From sequence record ON210139.1: a DNA stretch of 64,000 bases; one strand, given 5' to 3'. Positions within the stretch are counted from its first letter, which is position 1; every line of letters starts with the position of its first letter. Below, piece after piece: positions 716 through 43,283 of the stretch. This DNA comes from Escherichia phage EC128. The translations under genes and the position numbers were made by a program. The notes under the pieces are model-generated. The model had not been told where the DNA came from. It ran no database searches and saw only the letters and a list, made by a program, of their open reading frames with translations.

Positions 716-1999
716 TTATTCATCAATAATAATTTTTGGTAATTTAACACCTAATAAAACAGACAAATCTGAACGACCCGCCATTTTATCCATGTCTCCA
801 CCGTCAATTATTCTTGCTTCTTTTTCATCTTTTGCTACGGTGTAAGGATTTGCAGATAAAGCATATCTAACTAATAAACCGATAGACGGTTGTAAGCTTT
901 CTGGATCAACCACAACTTTAAATGCACCTACATGTTCAGGGTCATCTAAGTCGAGACCTTCTGTATACGGAGCATAGAAAATTGATCCAACAATTTCTTT
1001 TTCACCGATATTTTCTACTACGCCAACGATTACATAATCTAATGGGCTGTTAGTATCGCAATAAAGCGGTAAACCATTAGCTAAGAACCCATAGGCATTT
1101 TGTGAAAGATATTTATCATCTTCTGGTTTATGTTTTAACCAACCTGATGCAGCAAGAATCGCAGCGGAACGAGCTGAAGCAACACAGAACGTTGCAGTAT
1201 AAGTTGATTCTTTTTGGATATGCGAAACCATTTCACACACCATTCGGTATAATGAACGACCAGCTTCAGGTGCAGATGCATAACTCAAATCAATGAATCC
1301 AGTATCAGTAATTCCTGTGACTTTATAGCGTTTTGATACTGTAATCAAAGACTGTAGAATATCTTTATTGATTTCATCCGCCATTTCAGTTGCAAGCAAA
1401 TCTTCCAAGAAATTAGGAGCATCGAATCCATTTGCTTCTAAATCTTGTGCTAATTCAACCGTAATGCCAGTTTTAAGTTTACGAGATTTAACAGCGGTTT
1501 GCCATTTATTAATCTGGAATCTAGCATCCGCAATTTCGCTATCAGAGCTTTCAAATTTGCTTGTTGATGCTGCATCAGAAAATAGACGAACCTTTAAAAG
1601 AACAATTGCAATCTGAAGAGCTAGTTCTAAATCGCTTTCTTCAATGGTAGCAAATGGTGTATCTTCTAATACTTTATAAACGATATTATTATATTTGAAT
1701 AAATCGCCTTTATTGAGAGTTAATTTAGACTCTTCTGTTAATTCTGTGATTTGTTCTCGGTCTACGTATCCAGCTTCGCCAGCGTAAGTAGCACCAGTTT
1801 TAAATGTAAATTCGTTGTCTGGGTTAAGGTATTTGATACCATAAAAAGCAGCAACAGGTTGATTAGTTCTTTGCGTTGCTACAATGTCAGAATATATTAA
1901 TTTAGTGGTAGCGCGAGTCAAAGCAACGAGATTTGGGCGACCGATTGAGTTGCTATTCGTTGTGGTTGATTCGCGCAGAAGTTCGTTGATTTTAGCCAT
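716..1999 (-). CDS. 24: Capsid vertex protein gp24
   Basis: 427 aa ORF, paralog-like to the downstream major capsid protein, in the T4 position next to gene 23; length matches recalled T4 gp24. Confidence 0.9.
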   Translation of the reverse strand: MAKINELLRESTTTNSNSIGRPNLVALTRATTKLIYSDIVATQRTNQPVAAFYGIKYLNPDNEFTFKTGATYAGEAGYVDREQITELTEESKLTLNKGDLFKYNNIVYKVLEDTPFATIEESDLELALQIAIVLLKVRLFSDAASTSKFESSDSEIADARFQINKWQTAVKSRKLKTGITVELAQDLEANGFDAPNFLEDLLATEMADEINKDILQSLITVSKRYKVTGITDTGFIDLSYASAPEAGRSLYRMVCEMVSHIQKESTYTATFCVASARSAAILAASGWLKHKPEDDKYLSQNAYGFLANGLPLYCDTNSPLDYVIVGVVENIGEKEIVGSIFYAPYTEGLDLDDPEHVGAFKVVVDPESLQPSIGLLVRYALSANPYTVAKDEKEARIIDGGDMDKMAGRSDLSVLLGVKLPKIIIDE

Positions 2000-2026
2000 T
2001 GCGCTTTCCTTTTGGTTTATATGATT

Positions 2027-2034
2027 TATTTATA
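2027..2034 (-). promoter_or_regulatory. T4-type late promoter (TATAAATA) for gene 24
   Basis: Reverse complement of tatttata about 28 nt upstream of the gene 24 start. Confidence 0.6.
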
Positions 2035-2048
2035 CCATAAAAACAACT

Positions 2049-2070
2049 AAAGGGACCCGAAGGTCCCTTA
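2049..2070 (-). terminator. Hairpin terminator downstream of gene 23
   Basis: GGGACC-cgaa-GGTCCC inverted repeat immediately after the gp23 stop. Confidence 0.6.
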
Positions 2071-2082
2071 AATCGTCAAAGA

Positions 2083-3648
2083 TTAGATACCTTTAACATA
2101 TACACGGCGGAAGTAAGCGTTTTTACCAAGGCTATTCAGAATAGAAGGCATACCACTCTGAATGCGAGAAGCCGGAGCCTGAGCAGCGGATTCTGCAAAT
2201 GGGTTGATACCGATACCGTAACGAGTTTTGAATCCCATTACTGGTTGGAAGTTCTTCGGATCGGAACCACGCAGCGGAGTCAGAGCTACATATGGAGCAT
2301 AGTAAATACCAGCATCCATTTCGTTCGGACCTTTATAACCTACAGTGAAATAATCCTGTTTAGCATACTGGTCGATATATACACGGTATTTACCACCCAG
2401 AACACCAGCAAATACTGACTTGGTAGTATCAGTGTTAAAGCCAGTAGCCAGACCCTGTGCAGCATAAGAAATGCCAGTATCAACTGAAGCCAGAACGTTA
2501 ACTACGTTACGGGAAGCGATAATGAAGTTACCTTCACCACGACCGGTCTGACGAGCAATTTCAACTGCTTCTTTGTCAATCTGGAACAACAGAGCTTTAA
2601 AGGATTCACCCGCCCAGCGAGCACCACGAATATCAATCGGATCCTGGAAGTCAAATACGCCAGCTTTAGAACCCGGAGTCAGGGTCATACCAGATTTACC
2701 AACCTGAGCTGAGTAGTTAATCCAATCAACAACTTCGCGGTTGATTTCCAGCATGATTTCGGTAGCCAGAATACCAGACAGTTCAGCATCAGCATCCATA
2801 CCGTGAACAGCGCGGAGGTCTTGTGCTAATTCGATAGAGTAAGCAGCTTTCAGCTGACGAGATTTAGCTTCGATAACTTGTTTATCGATACGGAAGCCCA
2901 TTTCATTCCACGGGTTATCGGTAGAACCATTGAAACCTTCCTGGAGTTCAGCGATAGAAGTAGCCATACCTTCAGCGATTTCTACCAGTACACCAGCTTC
3001 CATTTGTTTCTTAATTTCAGCATCCAGTTTAGTTGCATCGTTAGCACTAGCATCGATTGTTACTACAGCGGAAGCTTGCAGATACACAGTACCAGTTTCC
3101 TGGAAGAAGTGAGTATAGATGTCACCTACAACAGTTTCTGTGCTAGCAGCCAGAGCTGGGAATTTCTTAGCAGCACCCTGACCAGAGAACATTGCATCTG
3201 GACCATACATTGGGTGGAATGCTTCTTTAGCACCGGAAGCGATTGGGTCTTTACCATATACTGCACGCAGTGCGAATACCTGGCCAGTCGGGCTGTTCAT
3301 CGGCTGAACACCACAAATATCGAAAGCAATCAGGTTAGGAATAGCACGACGTACCATACCCATAACAGCTGGGCCAATCTGAGTTACTGCGCCAGAAGTC
3401 TGACCAGCAGCAATGTTAGTAGCGTTGTAACCGTGATCACCACCGATTTCAGCTTCTGTTAAGAAAGAACCGAACGCCTGAGCAATTTTTTCGTCTTTGT
3501 ACTCTGGAGCTGTCTGGAAATCTTTTTCCTGGTTTTCAAAGATTTTAGCGATAATCGCTTGTTTGCTATTAGCAATTTCCGGTAAACCTTCACCTTCCAG
3601 TAATGGTTTCCATTTGTTCAAAAGTTCAGCTTTAGTTTTGATAGTCAT
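2083..3648 (-). CDS. 23: Major capsid protein gp23
   Basis: 521 aa ORF beginning MTIKTKAELLNKWKPLLEGEGLPEIANSKQAIIAKIFENQ; recognised as T4 gp23. Confidence 0.97.
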   Translation of the reverse strand: MTIKTKAELLNKWKPLLEGEGLPEIANSKQAIIAKIFENQEKDFQTAPEYKDEKIAQAFGSFLTEAEIGGDHGYNATNIAAGQTSGAVTQIGPAVMGMVRRAIPNLIAFDICGVQPMNSPTGQVFALRAVYGKDPIASGAKEAFHPMYGPDAMFSGQGAAKKFPALAASTETVVGDIYTHFFQETGTVYLQASAVVTIDASANDATKLDAEIKKQMEAGVLVEIAEGMATSIAELQEGFNGSTDNPWNEMGFRIDKQVIEAKSRQLKAAYSIELAQDLRAVHGMDADAELSGILATEIMLEINREVVDWINYSAQVGKSGMTLTPGSKAGVFDFQDPIDIRGARWAGESFKALLFQIDKEAVEIARQTGRGEGNFIIASRNVVNVLASVDTGISYAAQGLATGFNTDTTKSVFAGVLGGKYRVYIDQYAKQDYFTVGYKGPNEMDAGIYYAPYVALTPLRGSDPKNFQPVMGFKTRYGIGINPFAESAAQAPASRIQSGMPSILNSLGKNAYFRRVYVKGI

Positions 3649-34910: not shown

Positions 34911-35198
34911 ATGAAAACTTTCAAAGAATTTACTTCTACAACTACCCCGGTTTCTACTATTACTGAAGCTACTCTTACTTCTGAAGTTATTAAAGCAAAT
35001 AAAGGACGAGAAGGTAAACCAATGATTAGTTTAGTTGATAGCGAAGAAATCAAAGGTACTGTTTACCTAGGTGATGGGTGGTCTGCTAAAAAGGATGGTG
35101 CTACAATCGTTATCTCTCCTGCTGAAGAAACTGCGTTGTTTAAAGCTAAACACATTTCTGCGGCACATCTCAAGATTATTGCTAAAAATCTTTTGTAA
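34911..35198 (+). CDS. ipI: Internal protein I (capsid-targeted)
   Basis: 95 aa ORF; N-terminal capsid-targeting leader ending ITE|A (gp21 protease site); body matches recalled T4 IPI. Confidence 0.85.
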   Translation: MKTFKEFTSTTTPVSTITEATLTSEVIKANKGREGKPMISLVDSEEIKGTVYLGDGWSAKKDGATIVISPAEETALFKAKHISAAHLKIIAKNLL

Positions 35199-35274: not shown

Positions 35275-35460
35275 ATGAAACGTTGTGAATTAATTCGAAA
35301 TGTTGCTATTGCAATTTCTGCTTCTGCTTTTAGTTTTTCAATGTTTGTTGGATTTATATGTGGATTATTAACTACAGCAGAAAATGTGTTTTCACTTGTA
35401 GTAGCATTTTTAATTGGTTTAATCGCTATCGTTATGGATAAAATTTCTAAAGGTGAATAG
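35275..35460 (+). CDS. Small hydrophobic protein (two predicted TM segments)
   Basis: 61 aa ORF, GAGGAG RBS, hydrophobic stretches ISASAFSFSMFVGFICGLL and VVAFLIGLIAIV. Confidence 0.5.
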   Translation: MKRCELIRNVAIAISASAFSFSMFVGFICGLLTTAENVFSLVVAFLIGLIAIVMDKISKGE

Positions 35461-35461
35461 A

Positions 35462-35842
35462 ATGTATAAAGTGTATGCGGATTATCAGGCTAATCCATCT
35501 GAAAAGCCAGGTTGTCAAATTGGATGGGCTCATGATACTTTGCTTGAAGCAGTAGATGCTGCCCAAAAATTGGGATATAAATATGTAGAGATTGTTCAAC
35601 CGTCAGGAAAAGTTATTACTCTTGAAGAGTTCAATAATATTAAACCAAACTTTTTACTTTTTGCAGGTGATAATTATTATCCTCGTGGTGGATATGCTGA
35701 TTTAATCGCGAAAGCCGCTACCGAAGATGAACTTCGTGATATTATTAAAGAAAATGAAAATAAACCGATGTATGGTTCTAATCGTTTTGACTGGTGGCAA
35801 ATTGTAAATGCCCATACGCATACTATTGTTGATGAAGGTTGA
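35462..35842 (+). CDS. Hypothetical protein
   Basis: ORF with AGGTGA RBS before ATG 35462 (track start 35453 is 3 codons earlier). Confidence 0.5.
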   Translation: MYKVYADYQANPSEKPGCQIGWAHDTLLEAVDAAQKLGYKYVEIVQPSGKVITLEEFNNIKPNFLLFAGDNYYPRGGYADLIAKAATEDELRDIIKENENKPMYGSNRFDWWQIVNAHTHTIVDEG

Positions 35843-36229: not shown

Positions 36230-36302
36230 TGGGAATTAGCCAAGTTGGTAAGGCACTGGATTTTGATTCCAGGATGCAAAGGTTCGAGTCCTTTATTCCC
36301 AG
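36230..36302 (+). tRNA. tRNA-Gln (anticodon UUG)
   Basis: Cloverleaf with acceptor TGGGAAT/ATTCCCA, anticodon loop TTTTGAT, T-arm GGTTCGAGTCC. Confidence 0.85.
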
Positions 36303-36303
36303 C

Positions 36304-36390
36304 GCGAGAATGGTCAAATTGGTAAAGGCACAGCACTTAAAATGCTGCGGAATGATTTCCTTGTGGGTTCGAGTCCCACTTCTCGCACCA
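36304..36390 (+). tRNA. tRNA-Leu (anticodon UAA), type II with long variable arm, CCA encoded
   Basis: Acceptor GCGAGAA/TTCTCGC, anticodon loop CTTAAAA, long variable arm, T-arm GGTTCGAGTCC. Confidence 0.85.
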
Positions 36391-36395
36391 AATTT

Positions 36396-36469
<74 letters not shown>

Positions 36470-36479
36470 ATTTAATTTA

Positions 36480-36553
36480 CTCCGTGTAGCTCAGTTTGGT
36501 AGAGCGTCTGCTTTGGGAGCAGAATGTCGTAGGTTCAAATCCTGCCACGGAGA
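36480..36553 (+). tRNA. tRNA-Pro (anticodon UGG)
   Basis: Acceptor CTCCGTG/CACGGAG, D-arm TAGCTCAGTTTGGTAGAGC, anticodon loop TTTGGGA. Confidence 0.85.
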
Positions 36554-36555
36554 CT

Positions 36556-36642
36556 GGAGGCGTGGCAGAGTGGTTTAATGCACCGGTCTTGAAAACCGGC
36601 AGTCGCTCCGGCGACTCATAGGTTCAAATCCTATCGCCTCCG
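36556..36642 (+). tRNA. tRNA-Ser (anticodon UGA), type II
   Basis: Acceptor GGAGGCG/CGCCTCC, anticodon loop CTTGAAA, long variable arm. Confidence 0.85.
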
Positions 36643-36644
36643 TT

Positions 36645-36720
36645 GCTGATTTAGCTCAGTAGGTAGAGCAACTCACTTGTAATGAGAAGGTCGGCGGTTC
36701 GATTCCGTCAATCAGCACCA
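36645..36720 (+). tRNA. tRNA-Thr (anticodon UGU), CCA encoded
   Basis: Acceptor GCTGATT/AATCAGC, anticodon loop CTTGTAA, T-arm GGTTCGATTCC. Confidence 0.85.
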
Positions 36721-36721
36721 A

Positions 36722-36793
36722 GGCCCTGTAGCTGGAAGGTTCAAGCAAGCGACTCATAATCGCCAGATGGTGGTTCAATTCCACCCAGGGCCA
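36722..36793 (+). tRNA. tRNA-Ile (anticodon CAU, presumably lysidine-modified as in T4)
   Basis: Acceptor GGCCCTG/CAGGGCC, anticodon loop CTCATAA; T4 encodes a CAU-anticodon tRNA-Ile (established knowledge). Confidence 0.75.
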
Positions 36794-36834
36794 TATTTTG
36801 GGAACATAAATACTCTTAGAAATAGGAGATATTT

Positions 36835-37500
36835 ATGTTCCATTACACTTATAAAATAACAAATAAAATTAATAATAAAATTTATATTGGTGTGCATTCT
36901 ACCGAAAATTTAGATGATGGATATATGGGTTCTGGTAAATTATTAAAAAGAGCCCAAGATAAATATGGTATAGAAAATTTTTCTAAAGAAATATTAGAGT
37001 ATTTTGATGATAAAGAATCTATGCTTGAAGCCGAGAAAAATATTGTCACAGAAGAGTTTTTAAATAGACCAGATGTGTATAATTTAAAACTTGGCGGTGA
37101 AGGTGGATGGGACCATATAAATATTCCTGGGATGCTAAACCAGAAGAAAGACGCTAGTTTAAAAGGAGCTAAATCGTTTAAGTCACGTTTTAAAAATGAT
37201 ATTTTACTTCAAGAAAAATATCGTAAACATGGTTCAAATGTATTTAAACGCTTGTGGTCAACTCCTGAATACAGGGAAAAATTTTTAAATAATAGCAGAT
37301 TTTTAAATAAGCATCATACTCCTGAAACTATTAATAAAATGAAAGAATCTCACGCCAGAAATAAACACCAACAGGGCGAAAAGAATTCCCAATTTGGTAT
37401 GATGTGGATTCATTCATTAGATGAAAAAGTTTCTAAACGTATTAAGAAAACTGACCCAATTCCAGAAGGATGGTTTAAAGGTCGAAAAATGAAATTTTAA
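36835..37500 (+). CDS. segB: GIY-YIG homing endonuclease SegB inside the tRNA cluster
   Basis: 221 aa ORF with GIY-YIG motif YTYKITNKINNKIYIGVHS; located between the tRNA subclusters as in T4. Confidence 0.85.
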   Translation: MFHYTYKITNKINNKIYIGVHSTENLDDGYMGSGKLLKRAQDKYGIENFSKEILEYFDDKESMLEAEKNIVTEEFLNRPDVYNLKLGGEGGWDHINIPGMLNQKKDASLKGAKSFKSRFKNDILLQEKYRKHGSNVFKRLWSTPEYREKFLNNSRFLNKHHTPETINKMKESHARNKHQQGEKNSQFGMMWIHSLDEKVSKRIKKTDPIPEGWFKGRKMKF

Positions 37501-37503
37501 TTA

Positions 37504-37580
<77 letters not shown>

Positions 37581-37894
37581 AACAAGAAGCCGGGTCGCTA
37601 CCGGTAAGTCGTCGGACTGATGTTCCCTGAGTAAGGAATTGCGTTAATAATCTTTGCGTTTATTGATGCCCTCTTACATCACAGCAGAAACGGCGCACCG
37701 AATTATCGATTCGAGGAAATATCTTTGCCGTAAGCCGAGTAGCGTTTTTGACGGAACGTTCGGATATGGTCGAGATATGGCCTTTTAAAAATATTGAGTA
37801 GCGTCAACTACTTAATAACCGGGTTCAAGTCCCGGCGTTTCGTACAAACACTTGCCTTAGCAGGTGGAACCCCGACAAGGTTGCCGCAAGGCTT
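37581..37894 (+). ncRNA. Stable small RNA region (candidate equivalents of T4 RNA species C and D)
   Basis: About 310 nt without ORFs downstream of tRNA-Arg, containing a tRNA-like T-arm (CCGGGTTCAAGTCCCGG) and hairpins; T4 carries two stable RNAs here; boundaries not determined. Confidence 0.4.
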
Positions 37895-37922
37895 AGCCCC
37901 GACCGAAAGGTTGGGGCTTTTT
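37895..37922 (+). terminator. Rho-independent terminator after the tRNA / stable RNA cluster
   Basis: AGCCCCGACC-gaaa-GGTTGGGGCT hairpin followed by a T run. Confidence 0.75.
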
Positions 37923-37924
37923 AG

Positions 37925-37932
37925 TATAAATA
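37925..37932 (+). promoter_or_regulatory. Late promoter (TATAAATA)
   Basis: TATAAATA 37 nt upstream of the ATG at 37969. Confidence 0.55.
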
Positions 37933-37968
37933 AGTATATTAAAACCACGATTTAAAACAGGAAATAAG

Positions 37969-38262
37969 ATGAAATCATATGCTCAATTTTTAAATGAAGC
38001 GGTGTTAAATGAAGCATCTAGCACCGAAATTCAAGCTGTCGCAAAAGCAGCCATTGCCGCGGGTAAATATTCCTATAAAGATGCTTCCGATGAATCGCGA
38101 TTCCAGTTCGCACGCGACATGAAAGCGGAAGGATTTACGGGAAATGCAGTTAGTATGGCCTGGAAAAGTTTAGTTGCTACTGGAGCTGCTTTTGCAAAGG
38201 CTTCAGGTAAACCTGCTCCTAAAGCAGATCCTAAAGCTGCACAAGAAAAAAAATATTGTTAA
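37969..38262 (+). CDS. Internal-protein-like gene with capsid-targeting leader; frame appears broken at an A8 run, with the continuation open to 38443
   Basis: N-terminus MKSYAQFLNEAVLNEA resembles the T4 internal-protein capsid-targeting sequence with L-x-E sites; A8 tract at 38248-38255 separates it from an overlapping frame (track ORF 38174-38443). Confidence 0.55.
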   Translation: MKSYAQFLNEAVLNEASSTEIQAVAKAAIAAGKYSYKDASDESRFQFARDMKAEGFTGNAVSMAWKSLVATGAAFAKASGKPAPKADPKAAQEKKYC

Positions 38263-38450
38263 AGGAATTATCTCCAAATATGAAGCTATCCTTAAAGAGC
38301 TTTTAGTAATCAAAACTGAAGGCCAAAAGCTAGCTCGTGCTTATAGTTTCAAAGATAATCCGCATGCTCATGACCTAGAGTATGTTGAAGACATCCAAAA
38401 AATTATTAAAGACCGCATTTGGTCTGCTAAACAAATCAAATAACATTCTT

Positions 38451-38477
38451 AGCCCCGACCAAAAGGTTGGGGCTTTT
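38451..38477 (+). terminator. Rho-independent terminator, near-identical copy of the one at 37895
   Basis: AGCCCCGACC-aaaa-GGTTGGGGCTTTT; direct repeat of the hairpin at 37895-37922. Confidence 0.7.
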
Positions 38478-42276: not shown

Positions 42277-42807
<531 letters not shown>

Positions 42808-42811
42808 AGTT

Positions 42812-42843
42812 GTTTACTTTCTCCTAGAATTGTGATAGTATAT
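42812..42843 (+). promoter_or_regulatory. Early promoter for denV
   Basis: -35 GTTTAC, -10 TAGTAT with upstream TG, in the 59-nt gap between e and denV. Confidence 0.55.
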
Positions 42844-42866
42844 TCACAGTTACTTGGAGGGATAAA

Positions 42867-43283
42867 ATGACTCGTATTAATTTGACTTTAGTATCTGAAC
42901 TTGCTGATCAACATTTAATCGCAGAATACCGTGAATTGCCGCGTGTTTTTGGTATAGTTCGTAAGCATGTGGCAAACGGTAAGCGCGTTAAAGATTTTAA
43001 AATATCTTCTAAATTTATTTTAGGTTCTGGTCATGTTACTTTCTTTTACGATAAGTTAGAATTTTTGCGAAAGCGTCAATCGGACATTATAACGGAATGC
43101 TTAAAACGCGGGTTCAGTATAAAAGATACTGAAGTTCCTGACATCAGCGATATTCCAGTAGAATGGAAAAATGATTATAATCCATGCAAATCAGCTATTA
43201 AGTTGAGTCAACAACGACTCGATGAAAAAATTTTAATGAAGCCACACTGGTATAAGTATTACGGCAAAAATATTTACATTTAA
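42867..43283 (+). CDS. denV: Endonuclease V (pyrimidine dimer DNA glycosylase)
   Basis: 138 aa [20 protein letters not shown]...; recognised as T4 endonuclease V. Confidence 0.95.

Follow-up and report, generated by a model that had tools for sequence, protein, structure and literature searches.

Escherichia phage EC128 (sequence record ON210139.1) carries a small gene between rnaC and e.8 (37969–38443, + strand) in the 64,000-nucleotide (nt) stretch analysed here, hereafter called the window. We infer from its sequence that this gene encodes a member of an additional, previously undescribed family of T4-type internal proteins (Ips), located at a third locus. The window belongs to a mosaic Tequatrovirus (T4-like) genome, and its + strand corresponds to the T4 minus strand. 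The gene probably encodes a late-expressed protein that is targeted by its leader, processed by the prohead protease gp21, injected, and active against a host defence, and the window would hold a +1 allele that arose at a mutational hotspot and makes the N-terminal domain only.

Leader, cassette and protein family

The open reading frame (ORF) begins with MKSYAQFLNE, which keeps Y4, F7, L/I8, and E10 of the T4 IPIII leader, MKTYQEFIAE. In the IPIII leader, residues 4 and 7 are reported to be the main determinants of capsid targeting, and residues 8 and 10 to steer processing (review of Black's work, PMC9026906). Two gp21-type L-x-E sites are present in tandem (L8-N9-E10↓A and L13-N14-E15↓A), and cleavage is predicted at both. 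Across the six frames of the window, only this ORF matches the strict motif M-x2-[YF]-x2-F-[ILVT]-x-E, a likeness beyond chance that bears out the original prediction of a T4-type capsid-targeting leader with two such sites. A looser motif additionally matches ipI and one 13-codon fragment in the six-frame scan, and ipI is the sole other ORF with the leader in the window.

The leader is kept in all family members, including relatives at approximately 40% identity or less (MKTYNEFLNE, MKSYAEFLTE, MLKFNEFLAE, MINFSDFLNE, and MKSFSSFLNE are examples from relatives), which argues for functional constraint on it. In the main clade, the cleavage site is tandemly duplicated (FLNEA-VLNEA; 37969–38016 in the window), and in other clades the leader carries just one such site (FLTE↓Q, FLMTE↓A, FLAE↓A/G). 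Because of this duplication, the leader length differs by five residues within the family.

The homologue in Yersinia phage fD1, g140 (67942–68415, 157 amino acids (aa), no T4 counterpart), was scored as particle-associated, having passed the stricter threshold in liquid chromatography–tandem mass spectrometry of purified virions (PMC8309999 Table S3). The products of the adjacent genes g138 and g139 (e.8) fell below that threshold (PMC8309999 Table S3). These data show expression of g140 and its co-purification with virions, not an internal location. The thymidine kinase of fD1 is also on the list, under the threshold (PMC8309999 Table S3).

The gene forms a self-contained 556-bp cassette, which consists of a terminator hairpin, a TATAAATA late promoter, the ORF, and a second copy of the hairpin. 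The cassette is bounded by a 30-nt direct repeat, CTTAGCCCCGACC(G/A)AAAGGTTGGGGCTTTT, at 37892–37921 and 38448–38477, with a spacing of 556 nt. The hairpin at 37892–37921 is the predicted terminator of the tRNA/rnaD/rnaC transcription unit. Late expression is suggested by the match to TATAAATA 37 nt before the ATG, a motif that is also found twice just 5′ of the e gene (at 42279 and 42292). The promoter scan found no sigma-70-like promoter ahead of the cassette ORF, and the late motif is the only promoter motif there. The features of the cassette are as follows.

37892–37921, + strand: upstream repeat copy, intrinsic-terminator hairpin (predicted); stem 37895–37918 plus T-run; left cassette border
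37925–37932, + strand: T4 late-promoter consensus TATAAATA; perfect motif match, 37 nt 5′ of the ATG
37959–37962, + strand: Shine-Dalgarno-like AGGA, 6 nt 5′ of the ATG, read from the sequence
37969–38262, + strand: truncated ORF, 97 aa, starting MKSYAQFLNEAVLNEA
37969–38013, + strand: leader (putative capsid-targeting sequence), codons 1–15, MKSYAQFLNE↓AVLNE↓, with two tandem L-x-E gp21-type sites
38014–38193, + strand: N-terminal helical domain, residues 16–75, common to distant Klebsiella and Yersinia phage homologues (alignment)
38194–38253, + strand: Lys/Pro/Ala-rich linker, residues 76–95, AKASGKPAPKADPKAAQEK; the final codons are the A-tract (alignment, low predicted local distance difference test (pLDDT) score)
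38246–38253, + strand: A8 homopolymer; A7 in most relatives, the additional A shifting the frame
38260–38262, + strand: premature TAA stop of the A8 allele; product ends ...QEKKYC, 97 aa
38252–38443, + strand: C-terminal helical-hairpin domain in the +1 frame, NIVKGIIS...WSAKQIK; stop 38441–38443
38448–38477, + strand: downstream repeat copy, terminator hairpin (predicted); stem 38451–38474; right cassette border

The T4 sequence matches the window perfectly through rnaC and the first hairpin and then resumes with the sequence that follows the second hairpin of the window. T4, T2, and T6 each have a single hairpin copy, and a tblastn search with the protein was negative in the 11–14 kb around the locus in these phages. 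The presence or absence of the cassette is therefore a clean indel bounded by the repeat. The original prediction called the locus non-canonical, which is correct relative to T4, T2, and T6 but not within the family, since rnaC–e.8 is the position of the cassette in every homologue locus inspected.

Removal of one A from the tract fuses the two frames of the gene as predicted, although the product is a 157-aa protein rather than one of approximately 155 aa. This protein is 100% identical to the intact proteins of Citrobacter phage PhiZZ6 and phage AdolfPortmann. It matches PHROG 2280 (function unknown) with E = 2.3e-60, residues 1–157 aligning with profile positions 1–172 of 178, a full-length match that is valid for the frame-corrected product only. 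The suggestion that the gene might be a relocated ipII or ipIII can be set aside, because the protein has its own family (PHROG 2280) and BLASTP found no similarity past the leader, with E ≥ 1.1 on short stretches of IPIII and no alignment with IPII.

In a tblastn search, 511 phage records gave a match (467 at ≥80% coverage), approximately twice as many as for IPIII (261 phage records). The carriers are mostly Tequatroviruses of Escherichia, Shigella, Yersinia, Citrobacter, and Salmonella, and phages of Klebsiella and Raoultella match in the N-terminal domain only. A profile search of 1.84 billion representative proteins returned only 13 matches, all from relatives in T4-like phages and with no tie to any other family, so the family is small and phage-restricted. 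The gene is annotated as "hypothetical protein" or "Phage protein" in every record inspected, and the family was already known to databases as a hypothetical protein. What appears to be undescribed is the Ip-type reading at a third locus, the clean absence from T4, T2, and T6, the two-domain layout, and the recurrent A6–A9 polymorphism in the linker. We found no paper that names this family as an Ip. It went unnoticed because its locus is outside the two known Ip loci and the cassette is missing from T4, T2, and T6.

The AlphaFold model of the protein (mean pLDDT 73) predicts a three-helix N-domain (residues 18–71; helices 18–30, 41–53, and 59–71 with pLDDT 80–90), an unstructured linker (72–87), and a C-terminal hairpin (88–154; helices 88–125 and 132–154). 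The predicted mature product is basic (pI 9.5), with a computed mass of approximately 15.4 kDa for the full-length form and approximately 8.5 kDa for the truncated form. Distant members keep the N-domain and linker, and their C-terminus is either the same hairpin or a different module ending in GDVGRHYKKL. The alternative C-module (...GDVGRHYKKL) is found in three proteins from Yersinia and Klebsiella phages (P0010, P0011, and P0031), which share the leader, N-domain, and linker. Two others (P0029 and P0033) retain a ...DRIWSIK-type end. The swap point of the C-module lies at or near the linker. Another relative, P0014 (94 aa, on a 2.9-kb Logan contig), is a chimera of most of a trna.3-like protein (...ATEDELRDIIKEN) and the final 27 residues of the family (PHAHSLEYVEDIQKIIKDRIWSAKQIK), whose counterparts in the window are at 35453–35842 and 38360–38443. 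Its structure implies a deletion that took out segB, rnaC/rnaD, all of the tRNA cluster, and the greater part of the cassette.

The A-tract and its alleles

The ORF at 37969–38262 overlaps a +1 frame that is open to the stop at 38441–38443. Both the stop at 38262 and the overlapping frame to 38443 had been predicted. The A8 run was also foreseen, but it lies at 38246–38253, two bases to the left of the position first given (38248–38255). In the A7 allele, the tract codes for E-K-N (GAA AAA AAT), the last residues of the linker. A change in its length thus costs the protein its C-terminal domain and nothing else, since leader, N-domain, and linker are all retained. The tract has the following states in the named phages.

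A7, intact: AdolfPortmann
AGAAAAA, intact: JK38
A8, frame shifted: teqhal, FJ1, AUBRB02, T4_ev240 and others
A6, frame shifted: SfPhi01, 235Ecol030PP, and a divergent lineage
A9, frame shifted: ECO4

Alleles were counted with 79/80-nt queries using identity bands and record-span lengths, together with a spread tblastn sample. Short megablast queries across the run were not used, because the low-complexity filter would mask it. The gene is unbroken in 53 of the 55 full-length matches in the evenly spread tblastn sample, and approximately 95% of relatives have an in-frame tract, either A7 or AGAAAAA. The flanking haplotype of the window has A7 in 20 records and A8 in one. A pattern scan of IMG/VR for the tract with its exact flanks returned a single contig and was useless for allele counts.

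The index of the assembly collection lists the exact 97-aa product in 43 blocks. Among the 23 contigs that were read are metagenome and Logan assemblies from unrelated samples, as well as several GenBank phages, and their neighbour genes differ; a second 97-aa variant is present on 9 further contigs. One A8 haplotype turned up in four separate samples (loci L007, L009, L012, and L013). Because the same truncated product recurs in dozens of independent assemblies, the A8 alleles are real and heritable in nature. A neighbour-joining tree spreads A8 over five or more haplotype groups and A6 over two.

The 62–63 codons downstream of the tract are open to the same stop in all 22 frameshifted loci, the window included. 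The ratio of nonsynonymous to synonymous divergence (pN/pS) of the C-domain is 0.082 among ten distinct 157-codon frameshifted haplotypes (pS = 0.28), compared with 0.085 among seven intact haplotypes. The equality of these values indicates that the divergence arose while the C-domain was translated. It points to frameshifts that are recent and recurrent, or often reverted or recombined, that is, to a recurrent hotspot rather than old decay. No in-frame ATG, GTG, or TTG is present in the C-domain frame after the run, so the C-domain is silent in an A8 phage, rare slippage aside.

The tract stands out in a genome that is poor in homopolymers. It is the only A/T run of at least 8 in the window, for which a first-order Markov model predicts 17.9 such runs (with 6 as the lowest count among 100 simulations), and runs of at least 7 number six against 51.7 expected (minimum 32 in 100 simulations). 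No run of six or more G or C was found in the 64-kb window. These counts suggest genome-wide selection against slippage-prone tracts. A-runs are classical hotspots of replication slippage in T4 (rII), and the tract is most simply read as a hotspot of mutation within an accessory gene that the phage can do without. The conservation of A7 was also considered as a sign of selection, and it proved too weak because it concerns two synonymous sites only; GAA and AAA are favoured codons in T4-like phages.

Proposed mechanism and alternative explanations

In the explanation that we favour, the gene would give rise, late in infection, to a full-length precursor of 157 aa whose N-terminal leader would carry it into the prohead core, where gp21 would trim it after LNE. 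The basic product (approximately 15.4 kDa, pI 9.5) would then be injected with the DNA and would most probably block a host defence, by analogy with Ip1, Ip2, and Ip3. From the A8 allele of the window, translation would end five codons after the tract, leaving the leader and N-domain only (97 aa, approximately 8.5 kDa when mature). The tract would be a hotspot of replication slippage, and the allele of the window a recent loss of the C-domain at it. The likelihoods that we attach below to other explanations bear on different steps of this chain, and they do not sum to one.

Several observations weigh against this explanation. The support for encapsidation through the leader, gp21 processing, and injection is sequence-based, and the gene lies at rnaC–e.8, outside both internal-protein loci of T4 (the 57B–tRNA side and e–denV). 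Searches of Pfam and NCBIfam gave no meaningful match, and Foldseek against PDB and BFVD returned only generic helical hairpins or the family itself (the family alone in BFVD), with no match of E <2 outside the family; these searches thus offer no functional clue. The fD1 proteome flags 113–137 of 277 proteins (PMC8309999), and the list is unspecific because lysozyme e, DenV, and NudE are among them. For the alleles, the locus sample is enriched for frameshifts and biased in frequency because these were gathered through a lookup of the truncated protein, and recombination among T-even phages could move one frameshift onto several haplotypes and inflate the apparent number of independent events. 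The breadth of the fD1 list, the unusual locus, and the fact that leader-dependent packaging is deduced rather than directly evidenced would all suit an unpackaged, cytoplasmic late accessory protein, with a leader likeness that stems from shared ancestry of the 5′ segment or from recombinational shuffling. We consider such a protein quite unlikely. The leader and its targeting and cleavage residues are kept family-wide despite divergence to approximately 40% identity or less, the late motif is the only promoter motif before the ORF, and the mature product is basic, as are the T4 internal proteins. In fD1, moreover, g140 is over the stricter threshold and its neighbours g138 and g139 (e.8) are not. 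T4 has its ip genes in two loci (Silas et al.), and "at least 10" Ips are reported in related phages (PMC12373910); the two-locus position is a positional habit of the known Ips and not a mechanistic requirement.

The remaining alternatives concern the tract. A sequencing or assembly error, in which the phage truly has A7 and an intact 157-aa gene, is unlikely but carries appreciable weight, and it also speaks against the proposed hotspot allele. Homopolymers are a classic site of error for several sequencing chemistries, approximately 95% of relatives have A7 or are otherwise in frame, and the downstream frame of the window is 100% identical in protein to intact alleles. Against it stand the identical 97-aa product in 43 index blocks and the 23 contigs read, from independent assemblies with different flanking genes, the existence of A6 and A9 alleles, and the recovery of one A8 haplotype from four samples. 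These counter-points establish A8 alleles in general and are not proof for this record, in which A8 is probably the true base. The 100% protein identity of both halves to an intact allele speaks against a decaying pseudogene, long inactivated and heading to deletion as in T4, T2, and T6, although such a state would fit the missing cassette of these phages and the other kinds of disruption known from family members (P0030, P0034, and the P0014 fusion). It is very improbable, given that the downstream codons remain open in 22 of 22 frameshifted loci and that the pN/pS of 0.082 resembles that of intact alleles despite a pS of 0.28. Of the possibilities first raised, neither pseudogene nor sequencing error describes the A8 alleles as a class: they are real in nature, and their pattern suggests recent hotspot events that recur, not pseudogenes in decay. 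Programmed recoding, by which the full-length protein would be made from A8 through +1 ribosomal or RNA-polymerase slippage at a regulated short/long ratio, has hardly any likelihood in our view, although a +1 slip of tRNA-Lys in the run would restore the wild-type ...QEKNIV... and the C-domain is under purifying selection in frameshifted alleles. A programmed site keeps its out-of-frame arrangement across relatives, whereas here that arrangement is the minority (53 of 55 sampled genes in frame), and the in-frame norm rules out a conserved programmed frameshift. RNA structure after the run is not significant (fold of 38254–38340, z = −1.6; 16 of 200 shuffles fold as well), a reading of the sequence upstream of the run found no Shine-Dalgarno-like stimulator, and A6 and A9 alleles would require the opposite shift. 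A8 is also shorter than the runs known to give efficient transcriptional slippage in E. coli. The slippage-regulated gene of the original prediction is accordingly abandoned. A further and doubtful possibility is that selection maintains the A7 tract as a contingency switch. The tract would then mark the linker of a two-domain protein that is injected, in a genome from which long homopolymers have otherwise been purged, and every large phage population would mix variants with the C-domain (A7) and without it (A6, A8, A9). If true, a defence that is blocked or triggered by the C-domain could be met without loss of the gene, and a lytic phage would be phase-varying an injected anti-defence protein through a simple sequence repeat.

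The e–denV junction, neighbouring genes and known systems

The gene order in this part of the window is 57B, ipI, homologues of trna.4/trna.3/trna.2, the tRNA cluster with segB, rnaD, rnaC, the studied gene, e.8, e.7, e.6 ... nudE, e, and denV. The main neighbouring features are as follows.

34911–35198, + strand: ipI, 98.9% identity to T4 IPI (tblastn) and found in the leader-motif scan
36230–37580: eight tRNA genes with segB
37969–38443, + strand: cassette ORF region, between rnaC and e.8
42313–42807: lysozyme e, 97% identity to T4 e
42808–42866, + strand: e–denV junction, 59 nt, with a single early-promoter-like element, GTTTAC...TATATT
42867–43283: denV, 78% identity to T4 denV

The 59-nt distance between e and denV and the absence of ipII and ipIII from the gap were both correctly foreseen. 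T4 carries ipIII and ipII between e and denV, and tblastn found no match to IPII or IPIII anywhere in the 64 kb, a search that recovered IPI at 98.9%. The junction element, GTTTACTTTCTCC...GATAGTATATTCAC, is single in the window, and T4 has three alike, before ipIII, ipII, and denV (T4 region 1857–3003 as fetched). With one element against the three of T4, the ipIII–ipII block has the appearance of a cassette that recombination between the repeated promoters inserted or deleted, and the indel polymorphism of the rnaC–e.8 cassette is of the same style. The e and denV genes of fD1 are likewise approximately 59 nt apart (PMC8309999 Table S3). A strict complementarity of the cassette gene with ipII/ipIII was considered and rejected, because T2 and T6, which lack the cassette, are reported to be without Ip2 and to need supplied Ip3 against GmrSD-ECOR17 (PMC12373910).

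Two other 157-aa products were seen near e and denV. T2 (AP018813) has a 157-aa ORF directly beside lysozyme e (2430–2903 of the fetched region), apparently mis-annotated as "valyl tRNA synthetase modifier"; tblastn gave no match between it and the cassette family, and the two are not homologous. In fD1, the gene just past denV is also 157 aa long, named "Head protein", and particle-associated. In the tRNA cluster, ARAGORN calls a tRNA-Met (CAT) at 36722–36793 beside tRNA-Thr, where the T4 record has tRNA-Ile, and this is presumably a lysidine-modified Ile tRNA. The flanks of the cassette are hyperplastic among the loci compared. Upstream there is segB, a 116-aa ORF, or a T5orf172/MUG113 ORF, and downstream e.8 follows directly, or a 187-aa ORF or a 184-aa DUF7338 ORF is placed ahead of e.8.

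Work from 2022–2025 (PMC9391042, PMC12373910) showed or implicated all three T4 internal proteins as specific inhibitors, with Ip1, Ip2, and Ip3 each acting on a different GmrSD type IV restriction enzyme. Because the T4 Ips inhibit GmrSD enzymes, each uncharacterised gene with the leader becomes a candidate inhibitor of an unmatched defence, and an anti-defence role may by this analogy be proposed for the cassette protein. Alleles that naturally carry or lack the C-domain offer a handle on the roles of the two domains. For annotation, split ORFs at this locus should be treated as one gene with a hotspot frameshift, and the state of the tract in each record needs read-level confirmation.

The cassette protein resembles the T4 internal proteins in its leader (MK[ST][YF]x[EQ]F[IL]xE type) with an L/I-x-E site, in its small basic product, and in a late-promoter motif that would fit expression at the time of head building. 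Like theirs, its gene is a non-essential accessory cassette, flanked by repeated regulatory sequence and variably present in close relatives. It differs in having no sequence similarity or detectable fold similarity to them past the leader, in its two-domain layout with a linker, and in its third locus, rnaC–e.8, instead of 57B–trna.4 or e–denV. It is missing from T4, T2, and T6 and was hence never studied classically.

Polymorphic T-even Ips (Ip5, Ip6, Ip7, and others) were described by Repoila et al. 1994, as cited in PMC12373910 and PMC3012670. In the records of T6 and T2, the annotations at the ipI locus read Ip5/Ip6 and "internal head protein 7". These proteins, and also Bas37_0260 (HIDEN-SEQ preprint), are similar to the cassette family in being unrelated ORFs that share only the leader and lie in hyperplastic cassettes. 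In contrast, they sit in the two known Ip loci, whereas the cassette family is annotated as hypothetical everywhere. Judging from its locus and present annotations only, the family seems to be absent from the set of ten Ips of Repoila et al. 1994.

The A-tract shares several properties with the contingency loci of Neisseria, Campylobacter, Bordetella, and Mycobacterium: a mononucleotide run in a coding sequence, a recurrent length change (A6–A9) that switches the frame, and alleles of both states in circulation, here with a tract that is exceptional in a run-depleted genome. The length changes are spread over several haplotype groups with the downstream selection signature unchanged, although recombination could lower the count of independent events. 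Unlike those loci, the tract lies in a lytic phage, is short (7–8), and drops one domain rather than the whole product when it switches. The A-run hotspots of T4 rII are A6 runs at which Streisinger slippage gives +1/−1 frameshifts at elevated rates, known as laboratory mutations. In the cassette, the variants segregate in natural and isolate genomes, and the tract has a length of at least 7.

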